From: Thraustochytrium aureum
Lineage: Eukaryota
Direction of reading: 5' to 3'
Assembly (NCBI GenBank): GCA_012862495.1
Contig: BLSG01000404.1
Coordinates: 1-58,215 of the forward strand
Length of the DNA: 58,215 nucleotides
Shown: in pieces, positions 3,101-39,895 of the stretch
How positions within the stretch are numbered: position 1 is the first letter of the stretch
How the letters are laid out: each line of letters begins with the position of its first letter
The notes under the pieces: generated by a model
What the model was told of the DNA's origin: nothing
The model's database searches: none
What the model saw: the letters and a program-made list of their open reading frames with translations, nothing else
Translations under genes and position numbers: made by a program

Positions 3101-3858
3101 TCCATGTCATATCGCGCCAATGTGCGAGGCCTGGCGGGGAGAGTCTCCCCGCAAATGAGGGCAAACGCATCTTCTTTGGCTTTGGCAAACATTTCCCGTG
3201 AAAACCTCAGCGGGGGGCCCAGGCCATCGGCGATCTCGAGTAGCCTCTTGCGCTTGAAGGCCACTGTGAACAGTGCTCGCAGCAACCGGCGTTCAGTCGA
3301 GTTTTTCGGGAGCGAGTTGTGAATGCTAAGTGCTGCAGCTAAAAGCTTTTCTAGCTCCTTCGATTCGACAACGTCCGTTGTGAACGCCCTACTCGCTTCA
3401 GCGATCAGCGAGTCAGCGTCGTTCGGGGCCATAATCAGCCCAACAGAAGCAATAATGTGCTTGAGCGCGTTCACCATTCGCGCCCAGTGGTCCTTGCTCA
3501 AACTCGCCCTCAAGCTCGACGAGTTTCGTAGCGTTTGGCTTGGCATGTTTCGAAGCGTCCCGTGTGGAACTCCGAAAGCCGCAAAGAGTTGGCGCAGGGT
3601 CTTCACAACAACGACCTCATCCACCTCTTCAAGCAAACCCTCGTGTTCTGCGGGCTCTTCAAACGCCCCTTGTTCTGGGGCACACGATCGACGAGGCGTT
3701 ACTCGCGCAATTCTCTTATCCGTCGGTTTGGCCCAGCCTTTCGGCCTTCCGCGCTTGCCCGTGATTTCGGCATCCGGCTTGCAGTTTGAGCAGTGCTTCT
3801 CGCACTCACCTGGACACTTTGAGCACTGCGCGCGTTTGCACTTGCACGTCTTTGCCAT
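154..3858 (-). mobile_element. Intact ~1234-aa DDD transposase-like ORF, probably Sola3-type DNA transposon
   Basis: Uninterrupted ORF, first ATG at 3858. N-terminal Cys cluster (CKCKRAQCSKC..C..HC..C) and AT-hook (KRGRPKG). Core motifs IMDYKMK..FGKRGISWHG, IQSDNANYYH and ETADGKGLIDAHF supply three spaced Asp (codons 2278-2280, 2008-2010, 1885-1887). Family assignment is from recalled motifs. No TIRs visible (gap upstream, window edge downstream). Confidence 0.6.
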
Positions 3859-4266: not shown

Positions 4267-5209
4267 GCCCGCTCGCCTCGTTGCGGTGCAGTGCGAGGAG
4301 GTCTGCGACCAGCTTGCCCACGTCGAGGTATTCCGAGAACGCGGCCAGCAGCTTGGCCAGGCGGTCTTCGTCAGCGGCCGACCAGGTGTCCGCATTTTTC
4401 GCGCACGGCGCCTGCGCAGCTGCGCCGGGCGCAGGCGACGCGGCGACAAGTTGCGCCAGCTCTGGGAGGCAGCCATACATCGAGTACTCGGTGGCATACT
4501 GCTCAAAGTACGACCGAATCGACTCGAGGCACGTTGACAGCGCGTAAAACCCATCGAGCGAAAACCGGTTGAAGATGCCGCCGAGGACTGCCACGCCATG
4601 GTGCTCGAAGAAGACGCGGTTCAGATTGAAGCTGTCGATCGCGTTTCCAACCCCCTTGGGGCAGATCAGCACAACGGGAGCGCGCGCGGCCGCCGCCAGC
4701 TTTGCGTTTGAAAGTCCAACGATAGATCCCACCGCGGGAAACCCAACACCGTCAACGACCACGATGCGACGGCCGCGCCGTGCGGCAAGCTCGTCCACTG
4801 CGCGCTCGACATCGCGAACCATCTCTTCGCTACTCTTCGTCTCGCCTGCCAGGAACGCGCGGGTGAAGCCGCTCACGTAGACCACGGGTCCAATCGGCAC
4901 GCAGTCGATGCCCCGCTGCTCGCAGTACTTGGTCACGAGCTGCCGGGACTCGCACTGCGTGGCTGGTTTGATGTAGGCGACTTCGCTGGGGGCGTATCCG
5001 AGCTTTTCCACGAGGCTCGCTAGGATGCCCAGGCAGCACGAAGACTTGCCCACTTGCGACCTGTCTCCCGAGACGAACAACCGTGCTGCGAGCGCAGGGT
5101 CCTGGCCCGCGCCGTCGCCTTGGGCGTCGGGGCCATGGTCGGCACGAGTCCCATCGCCGCCGAGGGCAACCCTGGCGCACCACGCCGAGGCCGAATACAC
5201 GCGCTCCAT
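4267..5209 (-). CDS. BioD/dethiobiotin-synthase-like P-loop NTPase (AAA_26 / Pta N-terminal-like); 3' end hidden in gap 3984-4266
   Basis: ATG at 5209. LFVSGDRSQVGKS P-loop, AYIKP, VVVDGVG, GVGNAID and GGIFNRF are in the order expected for the BioD/CobB/Pta-N fold. Confidence 0.75.
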
Positions 5210-5235
5210 GCCGCAAGGCAAGCTAGTCAGGCTTT

Positions 5236-5292
5236 GCCAGCCAGCCTGCCCGCCAGCCAGCCTGCCAGCCTGCCAGCCAGCCTGCCTGCCTG
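5236..5292. repeat. Imperfect (GCCA/GCCT)n tetranucleotide microsatellite
   Basis: Direct reading: gccagccagcctgcccgccagccagcctgccagcctgccagccagcctgcctgcctg. Confidence 0.8.
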
Positions 5293-6234
5293 CGAGCTGG
5301 CCGGGTGCCTGGGCTCCCGCTTTGTCCTCCCCGCCGCGCAGCGAACAAGGCACGAGCACGCTCGAGTCAAAGTCATCCGAGTCCAGACCACCAAGTTCTG
5401 GCAGGAACGCCTGCCGCTCCCGTCATGGACCGCGCGGGGCGGCGCGGAACGCCGCTGCCGAGGGCGCTGTCGAGCGCGTCAAGAGCAGCCGCTCTGGGTT
5501 TCCAGGTCGCGCGGGCGAGGCGCCGGACGACCGGGGCCTCGTCCTGGACTGCGCAGAGCGGAAAGCGACCAACCAGAGCGCGAGTTGGTGCCTTGGGGTC
5601 AAACGACGACGCCAGTGCGACGGAGCCGAGCAGTCCGCGCAGGAATGCGATGCATTGGTTTTCGTGGGTGTGAGCGCGTAGTCCAGGCTGGTTTTTCGGA
5701 GTGCGGCTGGTTTTTCGGATTGCTTTGGTCTGGCGAGGTCGTCTTGGTTTTTGTTTGCGTTCCATGGGTTGAGTCGCACCTTTTTGGACATGTGTCAATA
5801 TCTGACTTTTGGCAAGGGTTGACGCGCCTCCAGCGTGCACGCGGGCGGCGCGGGCTCAAAACAAGACGCCGACGCTTGTCTCACTTGAAACATGTCTTGG
5901 CTGGCATGTTTGCTTTTCCAACGGAAGTCTGTGCCACGACCAGCAGTCTCGATTTGAGATCGGCAAAATCGCGCGCAACGCAGACAGCGCCCAAGGCAAG
6001 CAAGCAAGCAAGTACAGAAGCAGCTCGCCGTCAGGTCGACGTCAAAGCTACACCGTGTTCAGGCTCGAGCGCGGCCCGTGACAAAGCAAAACCCCAAGGA
6101 CGCGAAAGGATCGCACGATGGTCGCTGGACCTCAGAACTCTGACGCGGCGCCCCGTCCGTCCCAGCCCTCGGCAAGCCGCGCCGGCGTCTCCTCCGCTAG
6201 CACCGCGAACAGCCCCACCGGCAAGACTCTGATC

Positions 6235-7125
6235 ATGGCTCAAGGCCAGGTCGAGGTGGCGTGCGCGGCCGTCGCCGACGCCCGCGAGCTAGCCAAGCTC
6301 GAAGCGCACATCAACCCGGCCTACCGAGTCGGTGAGCGGGCCATCGCGGAGCGCATCCGCCTCGCCGGCGCGACAACGCTGGTGCTCCGCGCGAGTGGGG
6401 CAGTCGCCGGCGTTCTGTTTGCAGTCCGGTCTGACGTCAATGTCAGCTCCGTCCCTGGCGAGACGCCGTCCTACGCGAACTTTTACTCCGCCTTCTCGCC
6501 CGTTGGCAAGTTCGCCTATTGGCTTCACCTCATTGTTGCCCCGGAAAGCCGCCACCTGGTCAACGCGTTTCACGGCGCTGCAATTGACCATTTCCTGACC
6601 CAGCTCGGCTGCTCGAGCGTGCGCGCCATGACGCACCTCTCGGCACCGCCGACGGAGCTGGAGCGCGCTGCAGACGCCAAAGCAAAGGTCCATGCCGCGT
6701 CGGAGCACTGCGCGGCGGGGTCGAGATGGGACAAGAACCTGTTCCTGCATTCAAGCCGCGGTGCCAAGTTCTTGTGCGTGGTCCCAAGCTACAATCCGGA
6801 AGACCGGGCAAATGGAGGCTGCGCCATTGTCATGGAGTACACGCTCGCGTCCCGGGCAGAAATTGCGAACGGGGCCGCAACCGGCGCGACCACGTCTAGC
6901 GCTCGACTCGCGCCTGCGCGAATCCACGACCTGGTCCGCAATGCCGCTGGTGTTGACGAGGCAGTTGCGCTGGATCGCCACCGACCGTGGTTTGAGATGG
7001 GCTTGGACTCTGTCACCCTGATGGCCCTCCATCGCGCGCTTGAGGGGGAGATCGGGTCGGCTCTGGATGTCTCCTTCCTTTTTGGGGTCAACACCCTGGC
7101 CAAGCTCGACGCGGCCCTTGGGCCG
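6235..7125 (+). other. PKS loading module: GNAT-like decarboxylase plus ACP
   Basis: RAMTH...DKNLFLHSSRGAKFLCVVPSYNPEDRANGGCAIVMEY matches the CurA-type GNAT signature (Thr codon 6631, His codon 6748). ACP WFEMGLDSVTL, Ser at 7009. Confidence 0.85.
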
Positions 7126-10100
7126 CGCTATGGTGCGAACCCCACCGAGACGGAAACTGCGTCTGGCCTGGCGCAGCGCCAAGCAGGCCAACCCGAGCCT
7201 GTGGCGCCCCTGGCTATCTACGGTATCGGTCTACGCCTCCCCGGCACCGGCGAGAACGACATCGAGTCTTGCGAAGACCTTTGGGACGCTGTTGTAGCAC
7301 CCGTGGGGCAGTCGGAGCCAAAGGCCTTTCCCGCCAGCTCGCCAACCGGGAGCGAATCGACATGGAGACCTTCCGAGACCTCATCAGCCCAGAGCAGGCA
7401 AAGAGCATCCCGCTGGCGCAGCGCGTCGTGATGGAGACGACGTGTGCGGCTCTTGCTGACTGCCCGGAGGGCTTGATCGAGGAGACCGGGGGGCGCGTGG
7501 GTATCTTTGTGGGCTGTTGGGAACCTGCCGTCGGGCTGGACCCCGCCCGCAGTGGCGCGTCGGCCTCGGTGCATGCTGCCGCGGCCTGCTCCAACGCAAT
7601 TCTCGCCAACAGGCTTTCGTACCTGTTCGACTTTATCGGCCCGAGCCTGGTCATCGACACGGCCTGCTCGAGCTCCCTTGTTGCATTGGACGCTGCGCGC
7701 GCTGCTCTGCGCGAGGGCAAGTGCGCTGCGGCGATCGTAATCGGGGTCAATATCACCGACCCGCTTCGTTCGGACTTGCTCCGGACGGCGCACTTTTTGT
7801 CGCCGACCGGGGCGTGTCACACTTTCGATTCACGAGCGGACGGCTACGTGCGAGGCGAAGGCGGCGCCGCCATCGTTCTGGCGCCTCTGCGGGACGACAT
7901 TTCCCACCGCGCGCTATTGCTTGCTACCGCCGTGAACCAGGACGGTCGCACTGTCAACTTGCATGCCCCAAGCCCCGAGTCGCAAATGGAGCTTCTCGAC
8001 GCAGCATGCTCGGCAGCGCGCGTGGACCCTGTTGATGTTGCCTTTGTCGAGGCGCACGGGACGGGAACCCAACTGGGCGATCCCATCGAGGTCCGCGCTC
8101 TGCACCAAGTGCTCGGTGCGGCTCGCAAAGACGCTGATGAGCCTCTGTGGCTCTGCGCTTCGAAGGCCAGGTTTGGCCACACCGAGGGCGCAGCGGGCAT
8201 GGTTGGCATCGTCCATGCAGTGCTTGCTCTTCAAATGCGATTTCTCCCGCCGAATCCGTTCCTGCGAGAGCGAAACGGAGCCATCCCCTTCGAGGACTAC
8301 CGCGTCGCGCCAGTTGGCAGCAAGGGGGTTCCACTTGCTCCTCAAGGCAGGGTCGTCGCTGGCGTCTCATCGTTTGGGTTTGGAGGCACCAATGCCCACG
8401 TCCTGCTTGCTTCGCCTTCCGGCCAGGCAAGGGGGTTNNNNNNNNNNNNNNNNNNNNNNNNNNNNNNNNNNNNNNNNNNNNNNNNNNNNNNNNNNNNNNN
8501 NNNNNNNNNNNNNNNNNNNNNNNNNNNNNNNNNNNNNNNNNNNNNNNNNNNNNNNNNNNNNNNNNNNNNNNNNNNNNNNNNNNNNNNNNNNNNNNNNNNN
8601 NNNNNNNNNNNNNNNNNNNNNNNNNNNNNNNNNNNNNNNNNNNNNNNNNNNNNNNNNNNNNNNNNNNNNNNNNNNNNNNNNNNNNNNNNNNNNNNNNNNN
8701 NNNNNNNNNNNNNNNNNNNNNNNNNNNNNNNNNNNNNNNNNNNNNNNNNNNNNNNNNNNNNNNNNNNNNNNNNNNNNNNNNNNNNNNNNNNNNNNNNNNN
8801 NNNNNNNNNNNNNNNNNNNNNNNNNNNNNNNNNNNNNNNNNNNNNNNNNNNNNNNNNNNNNNNNNNNNNNNNNNNNNNNNNNNNNNNNNNNNNNNNNNNN
8901 NNNNNNNNNNNNNNNNNNNNNNNNNNNNNNNNNNNNNNNNNNNNNNNNNNNNNNNNNNNNNNNNNNNNNNNNNNNNNNNNNNNNNNNNNNNNNNNNNNNN
9001 NNNNNNNNNNNNNNNNNNNNNNNNTTGAGAGCTCAGCAAAGCCCAAGTTCGCGTGCTCCGCCCAGCGCCAGCGGCTGTCGCAAGGACCGGAGACGGTGGC
9101 CCGCTGGCTTTCCCGGTTCGGCCTGGCGCAGCTTATGTTGTTAGCGGTGGACTCGGAGGCATCGGGCAGAAGCTCGCAGTCGAGCTCACCGAACGTGGCG
9201 CAGGGCTCGTCGTACTCCTTGGCCGCTCGGAGCCTCCGCGCGAGCTGCCCACCTCGATTTGCCGTTTCGTGCAGTGCGACGTCAGTGACGCAAGCCAGCT
9301 ACGAGTCGCTCTCCAGGGCGTCCCGCAGAGCCCTGCCGGTGTCTTTCACTGCGCTGCATCGCTTGCAGACGCCACAGTGGCCAACTTGACTCCCGAAGCG
9401 TTCGCGCTGTCGTTTGGCGCCAAGGTCGCGGGAGCTGAAAACCTCATCGAGGCCTGCGCCGCGCAGGCTGACTTTGTCGTCCTCTTCTCGTCGGTCGTGG
9501 CAGGCTTTGGAGTTCCTGGTCAGGCAAACTACGCTGCTGCCAACGGCGCGCTGGATGACTTGGCTTGCGGGGTGGCGCAGCCTCCCCGTTCACAAACGTT
9601 TGGAGCCTTCGCTGGGGGCCCTGGGCCGGTGCTGGCATGGTTGGTGCAGGTGCGCAGCGCTGGTCTCGACTTGGCCTTCCCGCCCTCCGGCCAATACACG
9701 CAATGCAGGCACTTTTCAGCATTGTCAGGGACGATGAGGGCGATCGGGTGCTCACGATTGCCAACATCGAACCCAAGTCTGTGCGTGTCTCGCTGCCGCA
9801 TGTCGGAAACTACACAGCGCAGCTTGTAGCGAATTCAACGTCCGCAGCTGGAGAATGCGCGGCTCTCGTGCCTGGTGGAGAGCAGCTGGTGCGGAGCGTC
9901 GCTGTAGCTGTTGGGCTCTGCCGCACGGACGAGTCTCTCGAGATGGACGTAACGTGGCGTGAAGCTGGTCTCGATTCCCTTGGCATGATCGAGTTCCGCA
10001 ACCTAGTCCAAGATCGCTTGGCTGGCGTTGCCAAATTGCACGACACCATCCTCTTCGATTACACCTCGCCGCAAAAGCTTGCAGACTGGGTCGATAGCGT

Positions 10101-13100
10101 CGCGGTCGGGCCTGGCGATGGCACCGAAAAGAGGCGCGCGAGCAAGGCGCCTCGCAGTGTCTTGAACAATGGGACCCCGATTACTGGGGCTGCCTGTCGG
10201 CTTCCGGGCGGCGTCCGCTCGCCGTCAGACTACTGGCGGCTGTTGTGCTCTGGGGAGGATGCCATTGGCTCGATTCCCCTTGGCCGATTTGACGCAGAGG
10301 CGCTCATGTCCAGCAAGCCGTCTCCGGGAAAGCTGTACACTTCCCAGGCAGGCTTTATCGACGAGGTCGAGCACTTTGACTGCGCTTCGTTTGGAATCTC
10401 CCCTCAGGAAGCCACGTCAATGGACCCTCAGCAGCGCCTCGCACTGCAAGTGGCACGGGAAGCCCTGGCTTCAGCTGGCCTCGTTGGACGCGAAGCACGG
10501 ACGTCCAATGTTGGAGTCTATGTTGGCGTTATGACAAACGACTGGGCAAACGAGACCCGCGAGGCGTCCGGCGATCCGCTCTCTGCGTACTCTGCTGCGG
10601 GCCACATCCCGTGCGTGCTGGCAAACAGGATTTCGTACTGCCTGGGCCTAGATGGACCATCGATGAGCATCGACACGGCGTGCAGCTCGTCTCTCGTGGC
10701 CCTCGACGCCGCCTGCTCGGCACTTGACCGCGGCGATTGCGAAGCCGCAGTCGTGGTCGGAGTCAACCTGATATTGGGGCCACGGCTGTTTCTCGAGGAG
10801 TGCGCTGCCCGCATGCTCTCCCAACGCGGCCGCTGCGCAACCCTTTCAGAGGATGCAGACGGATACACTCGAGGCGAAGGCTGCGTCGCCTTCGTGGTTG
10901 AGCGAGCTCCGCCTCCGGGATGCACGCTTGCGAGGGTTCTGAGTTCCGCTGTAAACCAGGACGGCCGCAGCGCCAATTTGACGTCTCCAAGCGGCCTCGC
11001 ACAACAGGCTGTGGTGCGCACTGCGCTGGCGCGCGCGTCGATCTCGCCCGCTCGGGTCGATTTTCTCGAGACTCATGGCACGGGCACCCCTCTAGGTGAC
11101 CCGATTGAAGTCGGCGCGCTCGCGGCAGTGTTCGGCCAAGACGAGCAGCGCAGCGCTCCGCTCTACCTCGGGGCGTCAAAGTCTGTCATCGGCCACACAG
11201 AGGCGGCTGCGGGCCTGGCTTCCCTCCTGAAGGCGTTGCTTTGCCTCCACCATGGGCGTGTTCCCGCAAACCTGCATTGTGCCGCCGACAGAATCAACCC
11301 AAAGGTCCAGGCGCTCCTAGGGACGTCGCTCAGCCTCCCGACCGAGCCGGTGCAGCTCGTCTCGCGTGCCCCCGTTGCAGGCGTCTCCGCGTTTGGCTTT
11401 GGCGGCACAAATGCCCATGTCTTGATTGCGCTGGAGCCGAACTGCAGCCGCGCGCTTCTGGAGGAAAGCGAGCCGGAGCAGCGATCAGGGCGGGCTTCCC
11501 GGCTTCCGTGGGGCGCGGCATCTGGTTCCGTGTTTGAGGTGGACTGGGTGCCCTGCCCACGCCCTGGGAGTGAGAGGCCTTTCGATGGCCGCGTCTTGGA
11601 GGTCAACTCTGTCGCAAAGGTCCTGCAGCACCTGCACGCGGCTTCGCATGGGTCGGAGATCGCCTTTGTGACTCGCTCTGCGACTTGCGCCGACGAGCGT
11701 GCAATTTGGGGCCTCGTCCGCAGCGCGCGCCTAGAGAGGCCAGACCCTAAGCCTGCGCCTGTGGACGTCTCCGCCCTTGGTCGGGTTTCAAGCCTCGCGG
11801 CTCAGCCTACCGGAGGACGAGCCTGACGTCTCGCTCCGACCCAGCGGACCGCCCATGGTGCCTCGCCTGGTGCCGTCGCAGGCGCGGCTTGAACCTTTCG
11901 GGCTGCGCCTCCTAGACGCCGAGTCCGCGCGCATACTTATTACGGGCGGTTCTGGCGGCATCGCGACCAGCGTTGCGAGGNNNNNNNNNNNNNNNNNNNN
12001 NNNNNNNNNNNNNNNNNNNNNNNNNNNNNNNNNNNNNNNNNNNNNNNNNNNNNNNNNNNNNNNNNNNNNNNNNNNNNNNNNNNNNNNNNNNNNNNNNNNN
12101 NNNNNNNNNNNNNNNNNNNNNNNNNNNNNNNNNNNNNNNNNNNNNNNNNNNNNNNNNNNNNNNNNNNNNNNNNNNNNNNNNNNTGCGGCGCCACATGGCG
12201 GTCAAGGTGGGCGGCGCCAAAAACCTGTGGGAAATCGTCGCGCCGCGTTCCATCATCACATTTTCGTCTACATCAGCCATTTTGGGCATGAAGCGTGGAG
12301 CGGCCTATGCGGCGGCAAACGCAGCGTTGGACGCCATCGTGGAAGAATGGGCAGCTGAGCTCACTGCGGCCGGGGACGTGGGTCGCCACGCCATAAACAT
12401 CAGATGGGACATTTGGGCGGAGGCTGGGATGGCGCACGACCGCGCAATGGGCTCGAGCACACGCGGGCTTTCGACGCTCAGGGCTTGTCAGCTCCTGGTT
12501 GGGGTGATGTTAAACCCCACGCAAGTCCCCCGCTCAGTCGTTCTCGCTGATGCGGACTGGGGCCACGTACACCGTGCGACCGGTGCGCGCCTACTAGAGC
12601 GCTTTTCAAAGGGCCAGACGAGCGCGCCCTCGCGGGAGTCTGGCATGGGCTCGACCGGGTCTGGGCCGCTTGTTGGCCCGCTGAGCGCTGGTCGGGCGGA
12701 CGTGTTGGACTGGGTGCTCCGCGAAGCCGCTCGATTTCTCAGTGTCGCTGCCCCGCCGGACGAGCCAAGCAAGGGCGATGCGTTTGAGCTGCTCCCGGAG
12801 ACGCCGTGGAACCAGGCCGGCTTTGACTCACTGAGCATGACTGACTTTATTGCGCACGCCAACGGCGCTCTGAGGCTTGGAGAGGACCACGAACTCAGCG
12901 ACACGGCTATGTTTGACTTTCCAAGTCCGACGGCGCTGGCTGAGTTTCTAGCTTCCGAGTTGAAGGGGCTCGGCTACGAGCAGCGCGAGGCCACGGTGGG
13001 GCGGATGGCCGCAGAGGAGGCGCTCCCCGAGTCGCAGGCTCGGTTTGAGCTCGACATTGTCGGTATGGCGCTCCGGTTCCCCGGGTCTGTGCGCAATGTG

Positions 13101-16100
13101 ACCCCCGACGGGTTTTGGGACTTCCTCGTCCAGGGCGGGGACGCGATGCGCGAGCTGCCCGCCGATCGGTTCCCCGGCCTCGCGGAATCCAAAGGCGTCT
13201 ATGTGCAGCGAGCCGCCCTTCTGCACCCTGACGTATTCGACGATGCTACTCGCGCTTCGCACCTTGCAGCATCCGCGCGAGTGCCCTTTTCCGGGGCTGA
13301 GCTCGCCGGGGCTGATCCGCACCAGAAAATCGCTTTGCAAGTCGCCATTGAGGCCCTCGACGAGGCTCGCGCTGGCGGGGCCGACCTGTCCAAGGTCGGC
13401 GTCTTCGTTGGAGCGCAGAATCCGGAATTTACGGTGGCTCAGCAGGGCAAAGTTTCGACGTATACTGCAACTGGGACGGCGCTGTCCATTATCGCCAACC
13501 GCATCTCGTTTGCGCTCGACCTCCGTGGTCCATCGATGACAGTCGACACTGCTTGCTCCTCTTCGCTTGTTGCGCTTGACGCGGCTTCCAAGGCGATCAG
13601 GAACGGCGACTGCACCGCAGCTTTGGTTCTCTCGGTGGACTTGATGCTCTCGGTCCATCGGTTCGAAACAACCTGCGCAGCGCGTATGCTGAGCCCTCGC
13701 GGCAGGTGCGCAACCTTTTCCGCCGACGCAGACGGCTACGCGCGGGGCGAAGGCTGTGGAGCTATCGTAGTAGCTGCCTGTGCGGCAAGCCTCGCGCCCG
13801 CATACGCCACAGTGCGAAGTGTTGCCATCAACCAAGACGGACGCAGCGCCAACCTCACCTCCCCGCGCGGCCCCGCGCAAGAGGAGGTGATCCGAGAGGC
13901 CCTACGGCGCGCTGAGATTGACCAAGCAGCCATGGAGGATGTGGCGTTTGTAGAGTCGCACGGAACTGGAACAGCCCTTGGCGACCCGCAGGAGCTCACA
14001 GCGCTGGCCAACGTCTTCCAAGGCCGGAAGAACCCGCTCCTGGTCGGGGCGACCAAAACCAACGTTGGGCACCTGGAAGCGGCGGCCGGCATCGTGGGAC
14101 TCATCAAAGCTGCACTTTGCTTGTCCCGCCGCGAACTTCCGGGCAACCTCCACAACGACGCAGAGAACCCTCGGCTTGCGCGCCTGCGCTCCAAGTGCGT
14201 CATGGAATTCCCGCGCGGCAGGCCAACCGCGTTGCCCAGGTCGGGGATGATCTTTGCAGGCGTTTCCTCCTTCGGATTCGGAGGGACGAACGGACACGCC
14301 ATCCTCGGCTCGGTCGCCCCAGAGCGCGCTGCGGCCATGCGCAAGCTTGCCAGGCAAAGGCCAATGACGGGCCCGGGGCAAAAGACCTTGAATGTCGTTG
14401 GCGGCGGAGAGGGGCGATGGAAGATTGGCATTGAGGCAGAAGGACTCAGTGTTGTGCGCCAGCACAGGGTCGGCAACCTTGAGGTGGTGCCTGGGACTAC
14501 GTACATCGAGCTCATCGACGCACTCGTCAGCGCTGAGAGCGACTCGCCCGCTTTTCTGCTCACCGACCTCGACTTCCACGCGATGCTCTTCGTTGGAGAA
14601 ACTGCCGAGCGACTGGACCTGGCCGTCGTAGAGGTTGGCGAAGACGCGTCTCGTCTCGGAGGGCAGACGCCTCGAAATCCGCTCCGATGACAGCAAGAAG
14701 TGCTATGCTGCGCTGACGCTCGAAATCTTGGCGGAGCCTCGCGCTGAGGCACTCGACCTCGCCCGCATGCAAGCGCTCTGCACGGTTGAGCTCCCTGCCG
14801 GCCCAGAGCTGTACGCTTCGTGCGGGAACGCGTACGCAGGCCCCTTTCAAGGACTGACAGAGGCCCGAGCTAGCCCGGACGGCTCGTTGCTCCTTGGCTG
14901 CGTCAAGCTGAGCAGCGCGGTTTCGCAAACAATGCAACCGTCAGTGTGGCTCGACGTGGCCTCTCACGTTGCGCTTGCGGCACTTCCAGCGTCAATGCGG
15001 TCCCGCCCTGTCTTCGCGGCACGCGCCCATGGGTATTACTCTGCTCCACGGAGTGCCAAGCGACTTGAGTCGGACTGCCTCTGGACTGTCCTGGAGCGGC
15101 GCGGAGAGCGGGCCTTCAACATGCGCGTGTTTGCCGCAACCAGCGGGCAGTTGCTGGCCGAAGTGAGCGAGTTTGAGTTTGGCTTCTTCAACGCGCCGAA
15201 CGCCGCGCGACTGATCTACCGAGACGTGTGGGTGCCGCCTGGCGATGCCGCGCGGCCCGTCTCGCCAGGGTCGCGCGCTTTGCTTATCGACTCTGCGTCT
15301 GTCCCGGAGCTTCTTGGCGCTGTGCAGGATGTCGTACGGCATGGCACAAACGGCCGCCGTGTTCAAGTGTTGGCTCGCACTGCTGGCCAGGTCGGGCTTT
15401 GCCGCTCGCTTGCAACGGAGCACCCGGCGCTCGGAGTTCAATGCGTCGTGCCTGGGACTGGTCAAGCTGTCGACGGGGAGCTCGCCAAGGCGGCGGAGGC
15501 CGCACTTGCGATTCCGGAAGCCGAGGTCCGACTTGACCGCGACGGAATACGGGTGCGCCGCCTCGAACGGTGTAGCGAGAACGAGCACGGGCCGCGTGCG
15601 ATTCGTGTCATTCAAAACGGGACCTACGTGGTGTCTGGCGGCCTGGGCTCACTCGGACGCCTTGTCTGTGAGGAGCTCGTCGCGCGCGGCGCTGGTCGTG
15701 TCATCGTGCTGGGGCGGTCAGAGCCATCGCCATCGCAACCAGTTCCACACAGGTGCGAGTTCCTCATTTGTGACGTTTCTGACGAGACCGCCCTCACCAG
15801 AGCAATCGGGCCATTCTGTGGCGAGATTCGAGGCGTCGTCCACTGTGCCGGCGTGCTCCAAGACAAGACAATCCTGAATCTCTCGCGAGCGGACCTTGAC
15901 GCCGTGTTCGCCGCAAAGGTGCTCGGCGCGCGCAACTTGGACATGCTGGTGTTGCCCAAGCTGGACGCCTTCGTCCTGTTTTCNNNNNNNNNNNNNNNNN
16001 NNNNNNNNNNNNNNNNNNNNNNNNNNNNNNNNNNNNNNNNNNNNNNNNNNNNNNNNNNNNNNNNNNNNNNNNNNNNNNNNNNNNNNNNNNNNNNNNNNNN

Positions 16101-19100
16101 NNNNNNNNNNNNNNNNNNNNNNNNNNNNNNNNNNNNNNNNNNNNNNNNNNNNNNNNNNNNNNNNNNNNNNNNNNNNNNNNGCTTTCTGCCGTTGAAGGGA
16201 TCGAGGCGCTCTTCGCCGTCCCGGCGTCTGCCGGTCCCGTGGTCACAATCACGCACTTGGACGCGGAAGTCTGTTCTCGTCGGGGGGACCTCTACATGGC
16301 CAGGCTCGTCCAGCCTGCTGTAGCGAAGGCTGCGATCGAGGAAACGCCGCTGGTGTGTGCGGGACGGGCCAGGCCATGGCGGCCCGCCTAGGGTCTCCGG
16401 CAGCTTGGCTGCGTTTCGTTCTTGACGCAAGCGAAGAGGTCAACCCAGGCGCAGGAGTCGGGCAGAATGCCGCAAGCACGCCATGGCGCGAGGCCGGCCT
16501 CGATTCCTTGGGGATGGTGGAGCTTCGGAATATGCTGCAGCATGCGGCTGGCATCGAGCTGGAGGAGACGATCCTTTTTGACCACCCTACCCCGCAAGCT
16601 GTGGCAGACTGGCTCGCGGGCCAGGCGCCACCGATGCAAGTGGCCGCGGTGGACGCAGGTGCCGTCGATTCAGCTGCTTGCGGCTCCTTCGAAGCCGGGG
16701 GGTCGAGACCCGCTGCCGAAGAAGACGACGCGGTAGCTATTACAGGTGTTGCTTGCAGGCTCGGCGGCGGAATCGAGTCCCCAAGCGCCTTCTGGAACCT
16801 TTTGTGTAGCAGTCAGCACGTGATCCGGGAGGTCCCTCGGGATCGTTTCAAAGTCGACAACCTCTACGACGCAACGCCGGGGACTCCAGGCAAGGCGTAC
16901 ACATTCCAAGGCGCTTTCCTTGCCGATGTTGAGCTCTTCGACCACACTGCTTTTGGGGTGTCAGAGCAAGAGGCCATGCGCATGGACCCTCAGCAACGCC
17001 TCGCGCTCGAAGTTGCTGTCGAAGCGCTGGCGGGCGCCGGTCTCGTCGACCCAACGCGCCCAACGGCGGGGACGAGGGAGAACATCGGCGTCTTCGTCGG
17101 TGCCATGACTAGCGACTGGGCCGTGCTTGCTGCCACAACGAGCAGCAAAGACGGGCTAGGGCCCTTTGGCCCGCCTTCACCTTTCACGGCGACAGGGCAC
17201 GCGAGCGCTGTTATCGCAAACCGCATCTCATACGAGCTCGGGCTAAGCGGGCCGTCGCTGGCTGTCGACACTGCCTGCAGCTCTTCGTTGGTGGCACTTG
17301 ACATTGCCCTCGCAAGCTTGGAGCGCGGCGACTGCACGGCAGCCGTGGTGCTCGGGGTCAACCTCATCCTCTCGCCGCACCTCTACATTGAGGAGTGCGC
17401 CGCACGGATGCTCTCTCCAACCGGCCGCTGCCACACATTTTCGGCACAGGCGGATGGATACGTGCGCGGCGAAGGGTGCGTCGCATTCGTTTTGCAGCGG
17501 GTGGGCAGCATCGCCAACAACCTTTCCCGAGCCCCGCCTCTCGCTGTGGTCCGCGCGGTGGCCGTCAACCAGGACGGCCGCAGCGCGAACTTGACCTCCC
17601 CGAACGGGATTGCGCAGCGCCAAGTGATAGAGCGGGCCATTCAGCGCGCGCGCGCCTCGGTTGACGATGTCGACTACATTGAGACGCACGGGACCGGCAC
17701 CGCTCTGGGCGACCCCTTGGAGGTGGCGGCACTATCCAAGACCTTTGCTGCTCGGAATGCTTCGCGGATGCTCTGCCTTGGGGCAGCCAAGTCAGCCGTG
17801 GGCCACACTGAGGGCGCCGCCGGGGCCGTGGGACTCCTTAAGGCAGTGCTCTGTTTGCACCACGGCGTCGTGCCAGGAAACGCAAGCCTGCGCTGTGCAC
17901 CAGATCTTAGCCCCAAGGTCGCAAGCGTTGCTCTGCCTCAGATGGTCTTCCCGGGCCATGGCGACCAGTTCGAACTGCGCAAAGATGCGCTTGTCGGTGT
18001 TTCGTCGTTCGGTTTTGGAGGCACCAATGCTCACGCCATAGTCTCCCGCTGGCGGGGGGACGCGAGGGCGCCCAAGCCGACCCGGACCTCGGGGTACAAG
18101 GCCGTGTCCTTGGAGCAAGACGAGATTTGCGTGGGTCGACCCAGAGCACGTCTTGGCGCTACCCCGTTCTGATCTCGCGCAGCGCCTGCCAGTGCAGGTT
18201 TTCGGCCTGGGCCTCGAAAATGTTGGACCAGCTTGCCTCGCCGTTGACCGGCTGGCCTGGAATGCCCTGCGTGCTGGCGGGAGTTCGCTTCTCTCTGGAG
18301 TTGAGGTGCGGGATCTGTGGTCGCTGGACGCCCGCGGACTTTCAGAGCCGCACCATGGCGACGAGGCCCGTGCGGCTGTAGCCGAGGGTGGGAGCGCTGC
18401 CGCAGGCCTCGTTTCGGCGATTTGCCAGCTCGACCTGTTTGCTCCGCAGCCAGCAAGTCGCCAGCTCGATCCCGTCAACGGTCTGCTGCGCCCCATCGAA
18501 GAGCGCGGTGTAGGTTTCCTCGGCCGCGCGGGCGGCGCTGTCGTCGAATCCGTGTGGCGGCACCCTGAGGGCTCGTTGTTGATCCACTTTCCCGCGGGGG
18601 CTGCATCCGAGAGCTGCGTCGTTGATCCGCTTGCGTTCTGCATTGCAGTGCAGGCACTTGAGCTCGATTCACAAGTGGCTCAGTCCCTCGCGTCAAGCAA
18701 TACCCAGGAGCTCGTGGCTGTGGACCGCCTTGCCGTTCTAGCACGGCCGCGGGGCGCGAGATGCTCTTTCGCTGCGCTTGTTGAGCCCCGCGAGGGCCGG
18801 ATCTCCTTCGCAGACATCACTGGGGGTCGGTGCAAGGTCCTCGTCGTTCTGGACGGCGTTCGCTTTGGCGATGGCGCGAGGTTTGGCAACACGAGCGAGT
18901 TCAAGCGTGTGTGGCGCCCGTGCGGCTCGTTCCGAGTGAGCGAGCGTGGAGCGCTTCCAATTACCTGCGACGCTGACGAGCTCGCTCGCGCCGTGGTTCC
19001 AAGCCAGACACTTAATACTGGAAGGGACGCGGCGTTGCAAGCCAAGTGCTCGTCGGGCATCCGCGCTGTTCTCGCGCGGCTTGATGCCGACTTTCAGCCG

Positions 19101-22100
19101 GCCGAGCCGCACCTCGTTGCTGCCTTGGCACGATGGCGCGACGCGTACCAGGACGAGCCGCAAGACACCACAGCAACGGGGCACGGGCAATGGGATGGGC
19201 CAGAGTTCGAGTTTTTCGAGTTGTGCGAGCCCCACCTCGAGGACATCATTCGCGGCCGCGTCAAGGCGGTCGACGTCCTCTTCGCCAACCCGGCGCTCAC
19301 AACGCGGCTGTACCGCGACTCGGGCCCCTCAGAGCCCTGCAACGTTGCGCTTGCTCAGAGCGTGCGACATATCGCTTCCGAGATATTGTCTGCGCGGGGC
19401 CCGGGGGCGGTGGTCCGAATCCTCGAGCTCGGCGCGGGCACCGGGGGCACAACGATGCATGTGCTGCCTGCGCTTGGAGATCTCGCGCGCCAAGTCGAGT
19501 ATGCCTTTACTGACATCAGCGACTACTTTCTCCGTGCCGCAGCGAAACACTTTTCTGGTTCTGCGGCGGCGATGCAGTTCCTGCTCTTGGATATCGAGCA
19601 GGACGCCAAGGCGCAAGGATTCGGGGATTGCAGCGTCGACATTGTGATTGCCTCCAATATAATCCATGCGACGCAGAGCCTGCGCACTACACTCGGCAAC
19701 GTGCACCAGATCCTCGCCGAAGGGGGATACCTGTTGCTGAACGAGGCGACCGTTTCCACGGCGTTTCTAGACGGCACCTTTGCGCTCACTGACGGCTGGT
19801 GGAGGTACCTGGGCGTCGACGAGGCACGGCGATCGCGCTCAGGGCCGCGTCCTGGACCCTGCTTCCTGGGGCTCGGTGNNNNNNNNNNNNNNNNNNNNNN
19901 NNNNNNNNNNNNNNNNNNNNNNNNNNNNNNNNNNNNNNNNNNNNNNNNNNNNNNNNNNNNNNNNNNNNNNNNNNNNNNNNNNNNNNNNNNNNNNNNNNNN
20001 NNNNNNNNNNNNNNNNNNNNNNNNNNNNNNNNNNNNNNNNNNNNNNNNNNNNNNNNNNNNNNNNNNNNNNNNNNNNNNNNNTCTCCGTGTCGAGAATCGT
20101 GCATCGGGCCGCGCAAGGCCAGGTTGTCTTCGCCGCCCAGCGCCCCGTCCAGGAAGCCACTCTGGCAAAGAAGCCGGACGCGCCCTTTCTCACTCCTGCT
20201 GGGTGCCGGAGGCTGGAACACAGCCTCAGTCGTGCCGCTGCGCAAGGAACCAGCGTGCACATTCTCTCACGCGTTGCCCTGGAGGACGTGGCGACAGCGG
20301 AAGCCATTCAGCACGTTGCCTTTCGCGCCGCTAGCGCTTTCGTCAAGGGCCCAGATCACACGCTCGTTTTCGTGACTTGCTCGGACGAGTGCCCCGCGCA
20401 CGCCATGGCTTGGGGCATGGCCGCATCGATTCGGAACGAAACGCCAAAACGCGTGCTCTGTATTGATGTGGCCGCGCAGCTGGATGCGCAACAGGTCGAG
20501 GCACTCGTGCGCGCCGAGGTGGATGGCCTCGCAGAAGGCGACAGGGCAGAGTACCAGGTGCGCTTTGACCCGGCCGGGCGCCGGCTTGTGGCCAAGCTCG
20601 TCGCTTGCGATGCTGCACGACAGCTGAACGCTGTTTCTCGCCCGGGTCACAGTGGCGTGGTGGATCCTCGCGGCACGTATTTGATCACAGGCGGTCTTGG
20701 CGGGCTTGGCCTCGTGGCCGCCAGCCTGCTGCTTGAGTGCGGGGCGCGCAACCTCGTCCTCGCCTCCCGGTCTGGGACTCTCAGGCACGGCTTGGCATCC
20801 GAGGAGGTAGAGCGAGAGCTAGTCCAGGTGATTCGGTCGTGGCCTGGGGCGAATGTTCTGGAGGCTGCTTGCGATGTGTCTGACAGCGCAAGCATCAAAG
20901 CGCTCTTGGATCGGGTCGACGCAAGCATGCCTCCAGTTGTGGGAATAATCCACTCGGCAGGCCTCACGCACGACGCGCTCTTCAAGGAGCAAGAGTGGGA
21001 TTCGCACTTCGTGCCGCTCCTTGGTGCCAAGGCGCGCGCCGCCCTGCTCCTTCACAACGAGTCCGTTGAGCGGGGCTACGAGCTTTCCTCGTTTTGTGGC
21101 CTTTTCCTCTGCGGCTGGTACGTTCGGCTCGCCTGGCCAGGCCAACCACGCCGCGGCGAACGCGGTTCTTGACGCTCTGGTAGAGCTCCGCCGCTCCCGG
21201 GGGCTTTGCGGCGCCTCGATCGCCTGGGGCGGCTGGACGGGGGTCGGTGCGGCCGTCGACAAGGTGGGCGCGAGCTCGAAGATTGCGCAGCTCGGCATGG
21301 GTCTCGTACCTGTTGAAATGGGTCGGAGCGTTCTGCGAAAGGTCCTCGCGCACGATGTGGATGGCTGCTTTGTGGTGTCCCCCATCGCGTGGCCAGCATT
21401 TGTTCGGCAGCAAGCCGACCTCGATTTTGTGAGCCCGTGCGTCACCAACGGCGCTAGTTCGCGCGAGGGGGCTTCGGCAAGCGTGCTGCAAAAGGAGCCC
21501 GAAAGGGCCAACGTCCAGGATGTCGTTGACGCTGCGCAAGTGCCCGGCCCATCCGTATCGGGTTCCGATTCCGAGCTGATCAACTTGCATGTCGAGCTCG
21601 AGGCGCTCCTGGCGCGATGCGGTGTGGGATGCTTGGAGACAAGCTTCGTGGACCAAGGCCTCGACTCGCTCAGCTCAATCGAGATCATCGCACTCGTACG
21701 GGAGGAGTTTGGGACCAAGCTCACGCCAACGTTTTACTTGGACCTCGAGAACGGCCTCGCGCTTGCAGAGCACTTGCTCGCTTCGCAAGCCCAGACGCGA
21801 GTACCGCAAGGCAGCGCGCCCAGTCGGGCACTTGATGGTTCTGTCGCGGCCTCCCGCGCGCAAGCGAGCGGGGAGCCTCGCGCGGCAGGTCCGACGGACC
21901 TCGCCTCCTCGCCGTGGATCGAGCCGCCGCTCAAGCCGGCGATGCGGCTGTTCTGCTTTGCGTACGCTGGAGGGCACCCGAACGTGTTCCAGTGCTGGCT
22001 GCCGTTCGTGCCGTCCTCGATCCAAATCTGCCCGATCTCAATGCCGGGGTACGGCAAGCAGACCGACCGCCCATTCTGGAGCTCCGTGCCCGACTTGGCA

Positions 22101-22745
22101 GAGTCGATGTTCCGCTCGCTACCGACCGACGTCCCGTTCGCTCTGGTTGGCTCGTGTCTCGGCGCCATCGTCGCGTTCGAGGTTGCCAAGCGGCTGGGAA
22201 CGGCGGGCGGTCCCCTTCCCTCCCTGTTGTTCCCGATCGCATGCTGCGCGCCGCAAGACTACTCGGCGGCACTGCGACTGCTCTACAGCAACCGGCTCAA
22301 GGAGAACACCTTTTTCGTCCCTTCTGACGAGGAGCAAGCTGTCGAGCGTTTTGCCGATCTCAGCGAGGCGGAGCGCGAGTTCACTGTGAACGACTTGCGC
22401 AGCCTCGGGTTTTTCAAGGACGACGAGACGCTTGCCAATCTGAAGGCCAATCAGGCCTATTTTGAGCACGTCATGTCGCAGCTCGCTGGGCAAATGCAGC
22501 TTGCAGAGCGATACCAATTTGTCCAAGGCGCCCTTCCGGCGGGCATGCCGGTTGTGAGCGTCAGCGGCGCGATGGACGAGACGATTCCGGAGGGTTGGCC
22601 GAGGCGTTGGGGCGAGAGGGCAACCCAGGCTCAGCACAAGCACTTTGAGATCGAGGATGGAGGGCACTACCTTGTCCACACGCATCCCCGCGAGGTAACT
22701 GAGATCTTGCTTGATGCACTTTCTGGCGCTGCCAGGTCGACATAG
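6235..22745 (+). CDS. Giant AT-less modular type I polyketide synthase (~5500 aa; GNAT loading module, 4 extension modules, TE), frameshifted and gapped in this assembly
   Basis: ATG 6235, TAG 22743-22745. Consecutive + strand ORF pieces join inside domains. 4 KS (each DTACSSS, HGTGT, GH[TL]E), 5 ACP (GxDS), 4 KR, DH, C-MT, TE. No GHSxG acyltransferase is visible. Confidence 0.93.
7207..10100 (+). other. PKS module 1: KS-[gap 8438-9024]-KR-ACP
   Basis: KS IDTACSSS/EAHGTGT/GHTEGAAG/SFGFGGTNAH. KR SGGLGGIG, ASLAD (B-type-like Asp), GQANYAAAN. ACP AGLDSLGM, Ser at 9976. Confidence 0.88.
10174..12960 (+). other. PKS module 2: KS-KR-ACP
   Basis: KS MDPQQR/DTACSSS/ETHGTGT/GHTEAAAG. Structural KR part (FEVDW..IWGLVRSARLERP). 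KR TGGSGGIA..GAAYAAAN, with gap 11981-12183 inside. ACP AGFDSLSM, Ser at 12828. Confidence 0.9.
13045..16620 (+). other. PKS module 3: KS-DH-KR-ACP
   Basis: KS DTACSSS/ESHGTGT/GHLEAAAG. DH QHRVGNLEVVPG and PSVWLDVASH. KR SGGLGSLG, AGVLQD (B-type); its catalytic Tyr region falls in gap 15984-16180. ACP AGLDSLGM, Ser at 16505. No ER. Confidence 0.9.
16727..21785 (+). other. PKS module 4: KS-degenerate DH-C-methyltransferase-KR-ACP
   Basis: KS DTACSSS/ETHGTGT/GHTEGAAG. MT ILELGAGTGGTT, FTDIS, SNIIHAT, LLNE, GWW. KR TGGLGGLG..GQANHAAAN. ACP QGLDSLSS, Ser at 21666. The DH-sized segment (~18170-18870) lacks the catalytic His and Asp. Confidence 0.88.
21940..22745 (+). other. PKS terminal thioesterase (type-II/GrsT-like sequence, Cys at the nucleophile position)
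   Basis: RLFCFAYAGG, MPGYG, PFALVGSCLG (Cys codon 22155-22157), GAMD, GGHYL. Confidence 0.88.
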
Positions 22746-23302
22746 GGTTAGTGCGGCTGTTTCACATTTGAGGAGGGGGAGGCCTTGTATGAGGCCGTGT
22801 TGGGCCGTAAGCAGCGTACCACGCTGTGACGCCCCCAATCGGGTTTGGCAGCACTCTCAGCAGTGGTCCGCAACACGTGCACGCACGGCAATGGATGAAA
22901 TCAAATTTTATCTTTTGAGATTGATTCTCGATGATTGCAACGATGATTTGGCTGTTGGTGCTTTACCTACTCTTGCTAGTATACTCACTGTCAATCCTGA
23001 ATTCATTCAAGAAAAAGGGCTCCGCATGCACGGTAAGTACTCGAGTTGATTGAATTGGCGGGCTTCCGATTCTCACTCTCTGGCGTTCCACCATTGATGG
23101 CGGTTGGGAACGTGGTTCGTTTACCCGAGACCCGAGCAAAAATAATGCTTCAAGTAGGCCAATTGATTGAACGAGACCTTGACTACTTACACGCGCGCGC
23201 AAAATCGAATGGCGCGCTATCCAGGCAGCGTGCCAGACGCGCAAACGCTCGCGTTGCCTCGCCAAGGTCGTCCGCAACGAGCGAGACGCGCTTCCGCCAA
23301 AC

Positions 23303-24345
23303 TCAATCGGTTCCCTCCTTGACCTCTTCGGCACATGCGGTGTCGGCCAGCGCAGTGTCGGCACTCGCGGTGTTGGCCCCATCTTCCTTTGGCGCCATAG
23401 TTGCTAGGGTTTTGCGCATCCGCTGCAACGCCTGTATACCTGTTACGGCATTCTTGAACTTGCGCGTCGCATTGTACTCTTTCAAGCGCGTCAAGTTTCC
23501 GGTGAGGTCCGAGTTGGCATCGCTCGTGAGCCAAGGGTGCTTGAGCACTTCACTTATGGACGGCCGCTGCACCGGGTTTGTGACGAGCATAAAATCGATA
23601 AAGTCCTTGGCGTCCTTGGACACGTTGTCCCAGTATGGCGAGGGAAACTCGTACTTGCCACGCTTGATCTGGCGAAAGAGCTCCGCGTTGTTCGGGTGGT
23701 AGAACGGAGGAAACCCACAAAGTAAGATGTAGGCGATGACGCCAAAGCTCCAGACGTCGACCTTATAGTCGTATTTTTCCCCGTGGAGGATCTCCGGCGC
23801 GACGTATCCAGGTGTACCGCACGCAGTTTTCATGAAGGGCTCCTCCTTGCAAACCTTTGCAAGACCAAAGTCGGCCAGCTTGACGACCGAATCATCCGTG
23901 GTGTCGGCGTACAACAGGTTCTCTGGCTTGAGGTCGCGGTGGACGATGAAGTTCTTGTGGCAGTACTCGAGCGCTTCGGCGATCTTGGTGAGGTCGCGTC
24001 TGGCCATGGCCTCTTCGTAGTGCTCCTTTTCGACAATTCGGTCAAACATTTCGCCGCCAGTCATCAGCTCCATGACTAGGTACACGTTTTCTTCGACCGA
24101 TATGTTTCGTAGAGCTTGACGATGTTCGGATGGTTGAGATCGTGCAGGATCTGCATCTCCGTCTCGAGGGCATCAGCATCCTCGCTCTTCATCGTTGTCA
24201 AGTTCATGATCTTGACCGCTCTGACGACGCTCTTGTCGTCCTTTAGCGTGGCCACTTTGACTGTGGCAAAGCTCCCAGTCCCCAACGTCTTGGAAACCTT
24301 GTACTTCTTCGAGAACTCATCGGAGTTGAAGAAGAACGACGGCAT
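23303..24345 (-). CDS. CAMK-group Ser/Thr kinase (CaMKI-like); one indel at ~24087-24090
   Basis: LGTGSFATV, AVK, HRDLKPEN, DFG, CGTPGYVAPE, and a C-terminal LKEYNATRKFK regulatory helix. The two ORF pieces join if one A is added to an A run (SKKNVYLVME). Confidence 0.92.
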
Positions 24346-25343
24346 CACGCCTGCCTCGTCCGTCTGCCTGCGTCGTGCCGGCGCTCGCGCTGGCAACTTC
24401 GGCCCTTAGCTAACCCCACCGCTTTCTTGGCCGGCTCTCCGCGCCAAATACCCTTTCACACAGGCGCAGGCCGATCGATCGATCGATCGACCGACCGACC
24501 GTCTTCCACGCGCGCACGCAGGCACGAACGCACGTCTGCACGCCCGCACAGCTGCTCGCTCGCTACCCGCTCAGTTCACCGGCTGCGCAGCAATGGCTCG
24601 AGTAAGCGCTCTGCCTGCGAACCCACTTTGCTTGCTTGTAGTGCGCCTCGCCTTTTCCGTGCTCCTTGAAAGGCTGTAGAATCAGCACTGCGTGCATGCC
24701 TGGTTGTCCATCAAGTCAAGCAAGCCTGCTCACTGCCCTCTGGCCAAGCAGTCAGTTCCACCCCACTTGGTCGTTGGCAGACTCGCGCAAACTAAGGCGC
24801 TCGAGGCGAATCGATGGGTGAGAGGTGGTCGAGCCACCCACTGTCCTGCGAACAAGCTTTGCCTCCGCGCAAGACTCCGCGCTGGGACCTCGTGATGGAA
24901 GTGATCGCATTCCTCTCCGTTTCAATCAAGAACACTGGACAGAACAGCCTTTCAGGAAACAAAAGGAAACGACCAAACTCGATTGCAATGCCGCGCCTTC
25001 GCCGCGCCGCGCCAGTCCTCCTGGACCGGCCACACCACGCTCACCGAAGCCGCCGGCCGGCCCGCCCGCGGCCCTCCACAAAACCAGCACGAAATTCCAC
25101 TCCAAAGCGTCGTAGATCCGTTGACATCGAGGCGGACTTGGGCGGAATTACCGGCTGTTTTTTGAATTTCAAAATGGCCAATCGCGATTGAAAATACGTG
25201 GATCGGGAGTTTGGGGATTTTTACGACGCCACTGCGTTTGGTGCGTGATGCGCCTTCTCGGCTGGCTCCTGTGCGTTGAGGCCGACACCCGCCGCGGTCG
25301 CCATGCGGCGCAATGCGCAGGCGATGTGCTGGCTTCGCGAGCT

Positions 25344-39668: not shown

Positions 39669-39895
39669 CGTGGCGCGGGAACCGCGCGGCGCGCACCGTT
39701 GCGTCGGCACAGACCAGGAAACGGCCTGCGTTCTGGGCCTGGCCGCATTCTATTCTGAAGGAGCGGTTGATTGAACAAAAACGACAAGGATCGGACGCAG
39801 GACGCGGCAACTCAAGTGGTCGAAGCGCCTGCCAGGCAGCTAGCTCGCTCCCGCTTGCGTCGGCGCGCAAGCCCGTTAGAAACAATTCCTCTCAA

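Follow-up and report, generated by a model that had tools for sequence, protein, structure and literature searches.

The window analysed here comprises positions 1–58,215 of contig BLSG01000404.1 of the protist Thraustochytrium aureum. On its plus strand, from 6235 to 22745, it carries a nuclear, single-gene, four-module type I polyketide synthase (PKS) of a eukaryote that lacks an acyltransferase (AT) domain. By Pfam matches the domain order is acyl carrier protein (ACP), ketosynthase (KS), ketoreductase (KR), ACP, KS, KR, ACP, KS, dehydratase (DH), KR, ACP, KS, methyltransferase (MT), KR, ACP, and thioesterase (TE). A GNAT-like loading domain precedes the first ACP. Motif reading finds the Cys-His-His triad (DTACS/EtHGTG/GHxE) in all four KSs and the GxDS serine in all five ACPs, as a preliminary description of the stretch had held. 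That description also called the gene complete and single. The full domain set is indeed there, but not as one open frame in the window, since four N runs and eight frame-break sites interrupt the called sequence. We read the gene as a likely functional PKS, likely inherited in thraustochytrid-type protists, that would build an unsaturated, hydroxylated, 2-methyl C10 chain and release it through a cysteine TE, most likely with ring closure. We put the probability of this reading at roughly 55%.

Two orthologs support the nuclear assignment and help in reading the gaps. A GNAT-domain profile run on metagenome contigs gave 212 pattern matches, among which a single GNAT locus was confirmed, the marine locus L001 (42.7% GC). 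Its PKS reads through 3,500 codons without a stop once a 55-nt GT-AG intron in KS2 is removed. The order is GNAT-ACP-KS-DH-KR-ACP-KS-KR-ACP-KS-DH-KR-ACP, ending at the locus edge, so that three modules are covered. Directly upstream of the L001 PKS lie genes for MnmA, an actin-related protein, Sec62, and CDC20/Cdh1, which are 55–76% identical to the copies at 36423–44843 of the window (CDC20/Cdh1, Sec62, actin-related protein, MnmA); these are context genes that do not belong to the PKS. In both genomes the third-position GC of the PKS agrees with that of the host: 0.69–0.75 versus 0.64–0.85 in the window, and 0.39–0.40 versus 0.33–0.46 in L001. The ortholog's intron, the conserved linkage, and the host-like codon GC thus identify a nuclear eukaryotic gene.

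The same profile, searched over 1.84 billion proteins, gave 157 matches. The top non-self match is P0122 (CAK9072556.1, 5,019 aa, from a 57 kb contig labelled Durusdinium trenchii), which carries the full domain order through to the TE. By sequence comparison, then, the PKS is kept in at least three divergent sequences, i.e., the window, L001, and P0122, and it is likely to have been inherited within thraustochytrid-type protists. Intron-poor genes and the layout match discussed below point to a thraustochytrid host. Weighing against such a history, P0122 carries a dinoflagellate label, and most of KS2 and KS3 as well as the TE end are missing from its model. A relative of a labyrinthulomycete virus is reported in the D. 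trenchii assembly (10.64898/2026.08.29.747986), and it is plausible that P0122 is thraustochytrid DNA co-sequenced there. Shared-word comparison found no full-length ortholog among 414 candidates of 3,010–5,000 aa, a weak negative since the gene is longer than these.

All features of the PKS lie on the plus strand. The GNAT-like loading decarboxylase spans 6235–6870; the start at 6235 agrees with the ortholog start, and a further in-frame ATG stands at 6118. The loading ACP (6919–7107) has the serine motif GLDS. Module 1 begins with KS1 (7200–8410; triad intact, frame break near 7330). It continues through a stretch that is mostly an N run (8411–9127), the B-type KR1 (9128–9620), which shows LAD and the catalytic Tyr and has its frame broken near 9590, and ACP1 (9913–10092; Pfam match and serine motif). 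The spacing from KS to KR in this module is 408–414 aa in both orthologs versus the 51 aa called in the window around the 587-N run, and both orthologs have a DH there with catalytic His and Asp. Together with the B-type Asp of KR1, these observations suggest that the 8411–9127 stretch conceals DH1 and the structural half of the KR. Module 1 is thus probably KS-DH-KR-ACP and not the KS-KR-ACP of the preliminary layout, the overall order of which stands. It counts against this assignment that DH1 is supplied by the orthologs and is not itself visible in the window sequence.

Module 2 consists of KS2 (10180–11442; triad intact), the L001 counterpart of which holds the intron, KR2 (11930–12425), and ACP2 (12789–12950; Pfam match and serine motif). 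KR2 has the catalytic Tyr and an N run inside it, and a frame break lies upstream near 11750; its B-type Asp is missing in both orthologs. Module 3 has KS3 (13056–14345; triad intact) and DH3 (14385–15190), which shows the HxxGxxxxP His and the Asp and contains a one-base assembly error at 14661. The B-type KR3 (15619–16180; LQD) follows, with its catalytic Tyr region within an N run and the Tyr present in both orthologs, and then ACP3 (16469–16615), with a one-base error upstream at 16341. Module 4 opens with KS4 (16727–18049; triad intact). Next comes a degenerate DH (18061–18930; one-base errors at 18061, 18091, and 18108). It lacks the catalytic His and Asp and gives no DH-profile match, in agreement with the earlier call of a degenerate DH before the MT. 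The C-methyltransferase (18939–19878; frame break near 19850) is nearest to the CurJ C-MT (E 2.8e-38) and keeps the His and Glu positions. KR4 (20672–21300; frame break near 21090) keeps the NADPH motif, Lys, Ser, and Asn, and has His (21147–21149) in place of the catalytic Tyr. ACP4 (21633–21776; Pfam match and serine motif) and a type-II-like TE (21900–22745) complete the gene. The TE has the motif GSCLG with Cys at 22155–22157, RifR-like Asp and His, and a stop at 22743–22745. Both the TE and KR4 had been called before as domains; the Cys nucleophile and the His-for-Tyr change had gone unremarked.

Searched with an AT profile made from retrieved proteins, all six frames of the window give no match, which bears out the earlier claim that the gene is AT-less. 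No AT match is found in L001 or P0122 either, and no free-standing AT in the window or L001. That the N run of module 1 hides an AT is countered by the orthologs, both of which span that part and have a DH there. The hallmarks of a polyunsaturated fatty acid (PUFA) synthase or a fatty acid synthase are also lacking: the gene has no AT, single ACPs, no enoylreductase (ER), and four modules. The earlier statement that it is neither a fatty acid synthase nor a Pfa-type PUFA synthase therefore holds.

Pfam recognises nothing in the first 212 residues. Sequence comparison of this region with the GNAT-like domains of SxtA, GphF, and CurA gives E values of 0.005–0.09, and language-model features agree. 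The top five Foldseek hits are the GNAT-like decarboxylase domains of CurA, GphF, and SxtA (E 3e-10 to 1e-8; model predicted local distance difference test score, pLDDT, 66). The Thr/His catalytic dyad of CurA is kept (Thr133/His172), and the position of CurA Arg404 is Asn in the window, P0001, and P0122. As malonyl-CoA decarboxylases also have a residue other than Arg at this position (PMC3701320), decarboxylation may still be possible. GNAT-like domains are described as decarboxylating malonyl-ACP in PMC10127204. The present domain thus shares fold and dyad with the CurA, GphF, and SxtA loading domains and differs from them in having no upstream methyltransferase or lid domain, in its Asn for Arg404, and in its eukaryotic host. 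Ten of the GNAT matches were looked up. Their named sources are Epipyxis, Mallomonas, Dinobryon, and Polykrikos, and one has a cis AT. GNAT priming seems to be spread among protists and little described. The chrysophyte PKSs (Epipyxis P0126 and P0133; GNAT domains in Mallomonas and Dinobryon) share the GNAT-ACP-KS start and belong to the closest GNAT and KS relatives recovered. They differ in that cis AT is kept where length permits judging (P0133), and they are uncharacterised database proteins. As a side observation, P0126, P0133, P0135, P0137, P0145, and P0204 comprise GNAT-ACP-KS(-AT) PKSs and one hybrid of PKS and nonribosomal peptide synthetase (NRPS); Epipyxis, a chrysophyte, is the source of two of them.

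In alignment, the TE matches the type II thioesterases RedJ and RifR. GSCLG stands opposite GHSMG, so that the nucleophile is read as Cys, and Asp and His fall at the RifR positions. The Cys motif is identical in P0122, and a public contig spans the Cys codon without difference. The thioesterase of SulM also has a Cys nucleophile. A functional parallel is ObiF, the TE of which combines GXCXG with a RifR-like Asp and forms the beta-lactone of obafluorin, whereas its Ser mutant mainly hydrolyses (PMC6668435). Ser-to-Cys replacement also favours cyclisation in an engineered Pik TE (PMC7327777). ObiF differs in ending an NRPS and in having a His before the Cys, whereas the present TE ends a PKS and is nearer to RedJ and RifR. 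The GxCxG motif discussed in PMC10401856 was set aside as not applicable, since it concerns starter-unit acyltransferase domains and not TEs.

Several points weigh against ring closure by this TE. The residue preceding the Cys is Ser in both the window and P0122, whereas ObiF has a helping His, and the match to ObiF1 is a weak one (E 0.0028), RedJ and RifR being closer. The single-sequence fold model of the TE (pLDDT 36) was not used, and the assignment of Cys, Asp, and His rests on alignment. A type-II-like TE would be expected to hydrolyse by default. The Cys TE could be a plain hydrolase that gives a free acid, or a transacylase that hands the chain to CoA, a lipid, or an amine, making a membrane or signal lipid. 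Its nearest relatives are free-standing type II thioesterases, tailoring, transport, and resistance genes are absent beside the PKS in both genomes, and long conservation amid housekeeping genes would suit a cellular role. On the other hand, the conserved loss of the usual Ser wants a reason, and Ser-to-Cys favours cyclisation in the two cases just given. We regard this alternative as unlikely, though it fares best of the rivals to release with ring closure.

A beta-hydroxy substrate for the TE depends on reduction by KR4, in which His replaces the catalytic Tyr in the window and in P0122. The B-type Asp position is not conserved, reading THD in the window versus RNA in P0122. We surveyed 132 fetched KR domains; the motif could be read in 77, and a KS lay upstream in the same record for 43. 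Outside the present PKS family, His occupies the Tyr site in two of three MT-bearing modules versus none of 30 others, a count that ignores relatedness. One of these His-type KRs sits in a DH-MT-ER-KR module and another in a DH-MT-KR module. Since a DH or ER downstream in such modules would need a reduced product, the comparison suggests that the His-type KR is an active variant. As a side observation, P0208, P0239, and L030 are bacterial-type KRs with His for Tyr, and they lie in in-line C-methyltransferase modules where the context is visible.

An assembly line with a non-reducing KR4 is the next alternative. The TE would then release a 2-methyl-3-oxo acid, whose decarboxylation would yield an ethyl ketone; alternatively, the keto chain would cyclise. 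The loss of the Tyr in two sequences and the varying B-type Asp favour this, and C-type KRs exist (PMC7327777). It also counts toward inactivity that activity of a His-type KR is not reported in the literature found (PMC10888640 and PMC11007384 hold nothing on such KRs), and that KR fingerprints are less dependable outside actinobacteria (PMC11228615). However, the NADPH motif, Lys, Ser, and Asn are all kept, and His recurs in two of three unrelated MT modules and in none of 30 without MT, one of the former having both DH and ER. A non-reducing KR4 is in our view rather improbable.

Beyond the observed domain content, catalytic residues, conservation, and genomic setting, and with KR4 taken as active, the following scheme of starter, stereochemistry, and product can be proposed from the domains. 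A separate acyltransferase, which we infer, would load malonyl units onto the five ACPs. The GNAT domain, judging by its fold and dyad, would decarboxylate malonyl-ACP to the acetyl starter. Module 1 (KS-DH-KR, with the DH supplied by the orthologs) would give a crotonyl unit, module 2 (KS-KR) a hydroxy unit, and module 3 (KS-DH-KR) an alkene. Module 4, with its KS, degenerate DH, MT, and KR, would add a further unit, methylate C2, and reduce C3 if the His-type KR is active. The colinear product on the TE Cys would be 3,7-dihydroxy-2-methyl-deca-4,8-dienoyl, or a triene if DH3 acts twice. In the last step the chain would pass to the TE cysteine, and attack by the 3-hydroxyl would form a beta-lactone. 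Closure through the 7-hydroxyl is disfavoured on chemical grounds, since the eight-membered ring so formed would contain an alkene and be strained. Tentatively, a beta-lactone is the single most likely fate, ahead of a free acid, transfer to an acceptor, and a 16-membered diolide, even though the odds for this one outcome are well below even.

The scheme presupposes a functional gene. The 14 in-frame segments contain no stop codon. Contigs from public sequencing runs were placed on 5000–24500, and the statements that follow refer to the 12 indel rows listed out of 26. One-base contig differences occur at 14661 (two runs), 16341, 18061, 18091, and 18108, the net effect of which restores the frame at three of the eight sites. 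At the sites near 7330, 9590, and 21090, the spanning contigs carry precisely one gap each, the position of which is not among the rows listed. All eight single-base indels checked among the listed rows lie in homopolymers. The CaMK-like kinase gene next to the PKS (23303–24340, minus strand) carries a one-base error at 24086 that is corrected by three runs, and it is a marker of the assembly's indel rate. Introns were rejected as the source of the frame breaks: no strong GT donor spans any of the eight sites, and orthologs align through. Taken together, the contig corrections, the homopolymer sites, the kinase error, and the absence of stops make the frame breaks look like assembly errors. 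In addition, an N run of 203 is bridged in a contig by just 16 letters, and gap sizes are therefore unreliable.

Some of the evidence tells against this account. The sites near 11750 and 19850 are not corrected in the listed rows, although orthologs align straight through both, and three more are corrected only indirectly. The correcting contigs have a depth of 4–6, the best run differs at 21 of 7,414 letters, and they may come from another strain or from the source sample. Pieces of the PKS also occur as contigs in three runs guessed to be RNA, which we count neither for nor against expression. One could argue that the copy in the present strain is a recent pseudogene with intact relatives. 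Eight frame-break sites in about 15 kb stand out beside the unbroken frames of CDC20, Sec62, the actin-related protein, and MnmA, and the correcting contigs may derive from another strain. The segments, however, have no nonsense codon and keep all catalytic residues, the indels sit in homopolymers and recur as the same error type in the adjacent kinase, and the four N runs signal thin coverage of the PKS gene. A pseudogene is thus very unlikely, and the gene is probably functional, as judged from its sequence. A misjoin had been suspected at 22750–23300. The DNA run covers every bin there at similar depth, and the records listed show no joint, although none of them bridges the spot; no signal of misjoin or contamination was found.

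The KS sequences bear on origin. The closest bacterial KSs are 42–48% identical (best 80 of 619 loci). A separate KS search was dominated by two-KS fragments and was used for identities and tree rows alone. A FastTree of 232 KSs, i.e., 426 minus near-copies, places the family's nine KSs in a 17-member group (support 0.99). This group also holds cis-AT KSs of Epipyxis and Chrysoparadoxa, together with GNAT-ACP-KS proteins and a single PKS of Serratia. When 57 selected KSs were placed in a quick IQ-TREE, the family fell on one side of a branch (91, unstarred), and 18 GNAT-primed AT-less KSs, presumed bacterial, stood apart (99). An approximately unbiased (AU) test on 36 KSs with a simpler model rejects a single clade with the GNAT-primed AT-less KSs (p 0.031). 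KS2–KS4 cluster together in both trees, which are unrooted, have KS1 as a long branch, and were built with characterised pederin and algal KSs left aside. At the level of KS sequence, close kinship with this GNAT-primed AT-less set is excluded, and the trees leave the donor unfixed. As a separate observation, both trees place P0003, a cis-AT PKS of Serratia entomophila, together with KSs of protists.

Pederin and onnamide are the namesakes of GNAT-primed AT-less lines, and the preliminary description had implied kinship with these bacterial systems. The KS trees and the AU test, the comparison set of which is without a characterised pederin KS, go against this. The same description held GNAT-primed AT-less lines to be typical of bacteria; the GNAT-ACP loading and the AT-less modules are indeed present, but GNAT-primed PKSs also occur in other protists. 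A pederin-type trans-AT cluster of a bacterium, misassembled into the scaffold or recently transferred, would account for the GNAT-ACP start without AT, typical of such clusters, and for every solved GNAT match being bacterial, but it is largely refuted already by the ortholog's intron and conserved eukaryotic neighbours, the low bacterial KS identities, the AU test, and a scan of bacterial genome contigs that, within its sensitivity, confirmed none of 165 pattern matches as a GNAT relative. Around the PKS no AT or tailoring cluster of the pederin/onnamide type is seen; its neighbours are eukaryotic housekeeping genes.

Shelest et al. (PMC4661987) set out a model of AT loss and module duplication, which fits KS and GNAT relatives that have a cis AT. 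Extending the reading of an inherited protist PKS, we propose, as a doubtful but specific scenario, that the gene goes back to a GNAT-primed cis-AT PKS, which within stramenopiles lost its AT and duplicated its modules. It would be conserved and would make a beta-lactone via its in-line Cys TE, having converged on a pederin-type start and an ObiF-type finish.

The architecture had been described as not recognised among characterised systems, a statement that needs revision. In Table S2 of Shelest et al. 2015 (PMC4661987), a noniterative, trans-AT PKS of Aurantiochytrium limacinum is predicted under the name AliPKS2 (JGI 149118). Its order there is ACP-KS-KR-ACP-KS-KR-ACP-KS-KR-ACP-KS-MT-KR-ACP-TE, which equals that of the present gene once the GNAT and DH calls are dropped. 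Compared by domain layout alone, AliPKS2 is likely orthologous to the present gene, and the PKS family was very likely catalogued by layout in 2015. The table entry is a prediction without a product and notes no GNAT, DH, His-type KR, or Cys TE, and AliPKS2 is unnamed in the main text. In the same table, SagPKS1 is marked as perhaps belonging to a larger PKS of which it is a fragment. The algal trans-AT PKSs of chlorophytes and Emiliania in that paper are likewise single giant AT-less polypeptides with modules related by duplication. In the rows compared they start with a ligase or ACP and are mostly without MT, whereas the present gene has a GNAT start, carries its C-MT in line, and ends in a Cys TE.

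According to PMC5029157, thraustochytrids express type I PKSs with multiple domains. The supplements of PMC10794256 have no labyrinthulomycete rows. For such a gene, neither a product nor a GNAT start nor a Cys TE was found in the literature searched, from which subscription journals were mostly missing; the online catalogue of PMC10394414 and other supplements could list it. The searches returned no full-length match to a characterised PKS with a known product, and with its eukaryotic setting the gene stays, as first proposed, an orphan PKS in a protist chromosome. A GNAT start, a His-type KR, and a Cys thioesterase on such a eukaryotic AT-less modular PKS are unreported in the literature searched.

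For most eukaryotic modular PKSs, no product is known (PMC13749307). The present PKS is small, with four modules in one gene, complete, and conserved, and it has a probable counterpart in A. limacinum. This species is an industrial food-oil organism in which gene knockouts are feasible. A concrete prediction can be made, i.e., a C11 product, possibly a beta-lactone. Two enzymological oddities accompany it: a thioesterase on a PKS that naturally uses Cys, and a ketoreductase with His for Tyr, a change that goes together with in-line methyltransferases. If the beta-lactone proposal is true, the gene would be a self-contained PKS route to this reactive ring of the serine-hydrolase-inhibitor type, of which no case was found in the literature searched; PMC11513958 names four established routes to beta-lactones, and an in-line PKS TE is not among them. 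It would also give these decomposer protists a first pathway to a secondary metabolite.

Downstream of the PKS in the window lie CaMK, LRR, and PDE6D genes. The TE end had been placed beside CaMK, BTB-LRR, and PDE6D genes, and this holds except for the BTB part, as the LRR gene has no Pfam BTB match. Upstream, at about 4270–5209 on the minus strand, a gene stands head-to-head with the PKS. It has an AAA_26 domain like the N-terminus of phosphate acetyltransferase and is missing next to the ortholog in the L001 stretch examined. In L001 a Myb-domain gene (6959–8170), with no counterpart in the window, lies directly upstream of the orthologous PKS. At 154–3858 of the window, on the minus strand, is an intronless open reading frame of 1,234 aa, with a GC of 0.556, below its neighbours, and no Pfam or NCBIfam match; its acidic motifs are reminiscent of a DNA-transposon protein, which we presume it may be. 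A pair of divergent VWA-domain genes occupies 30571–35618.

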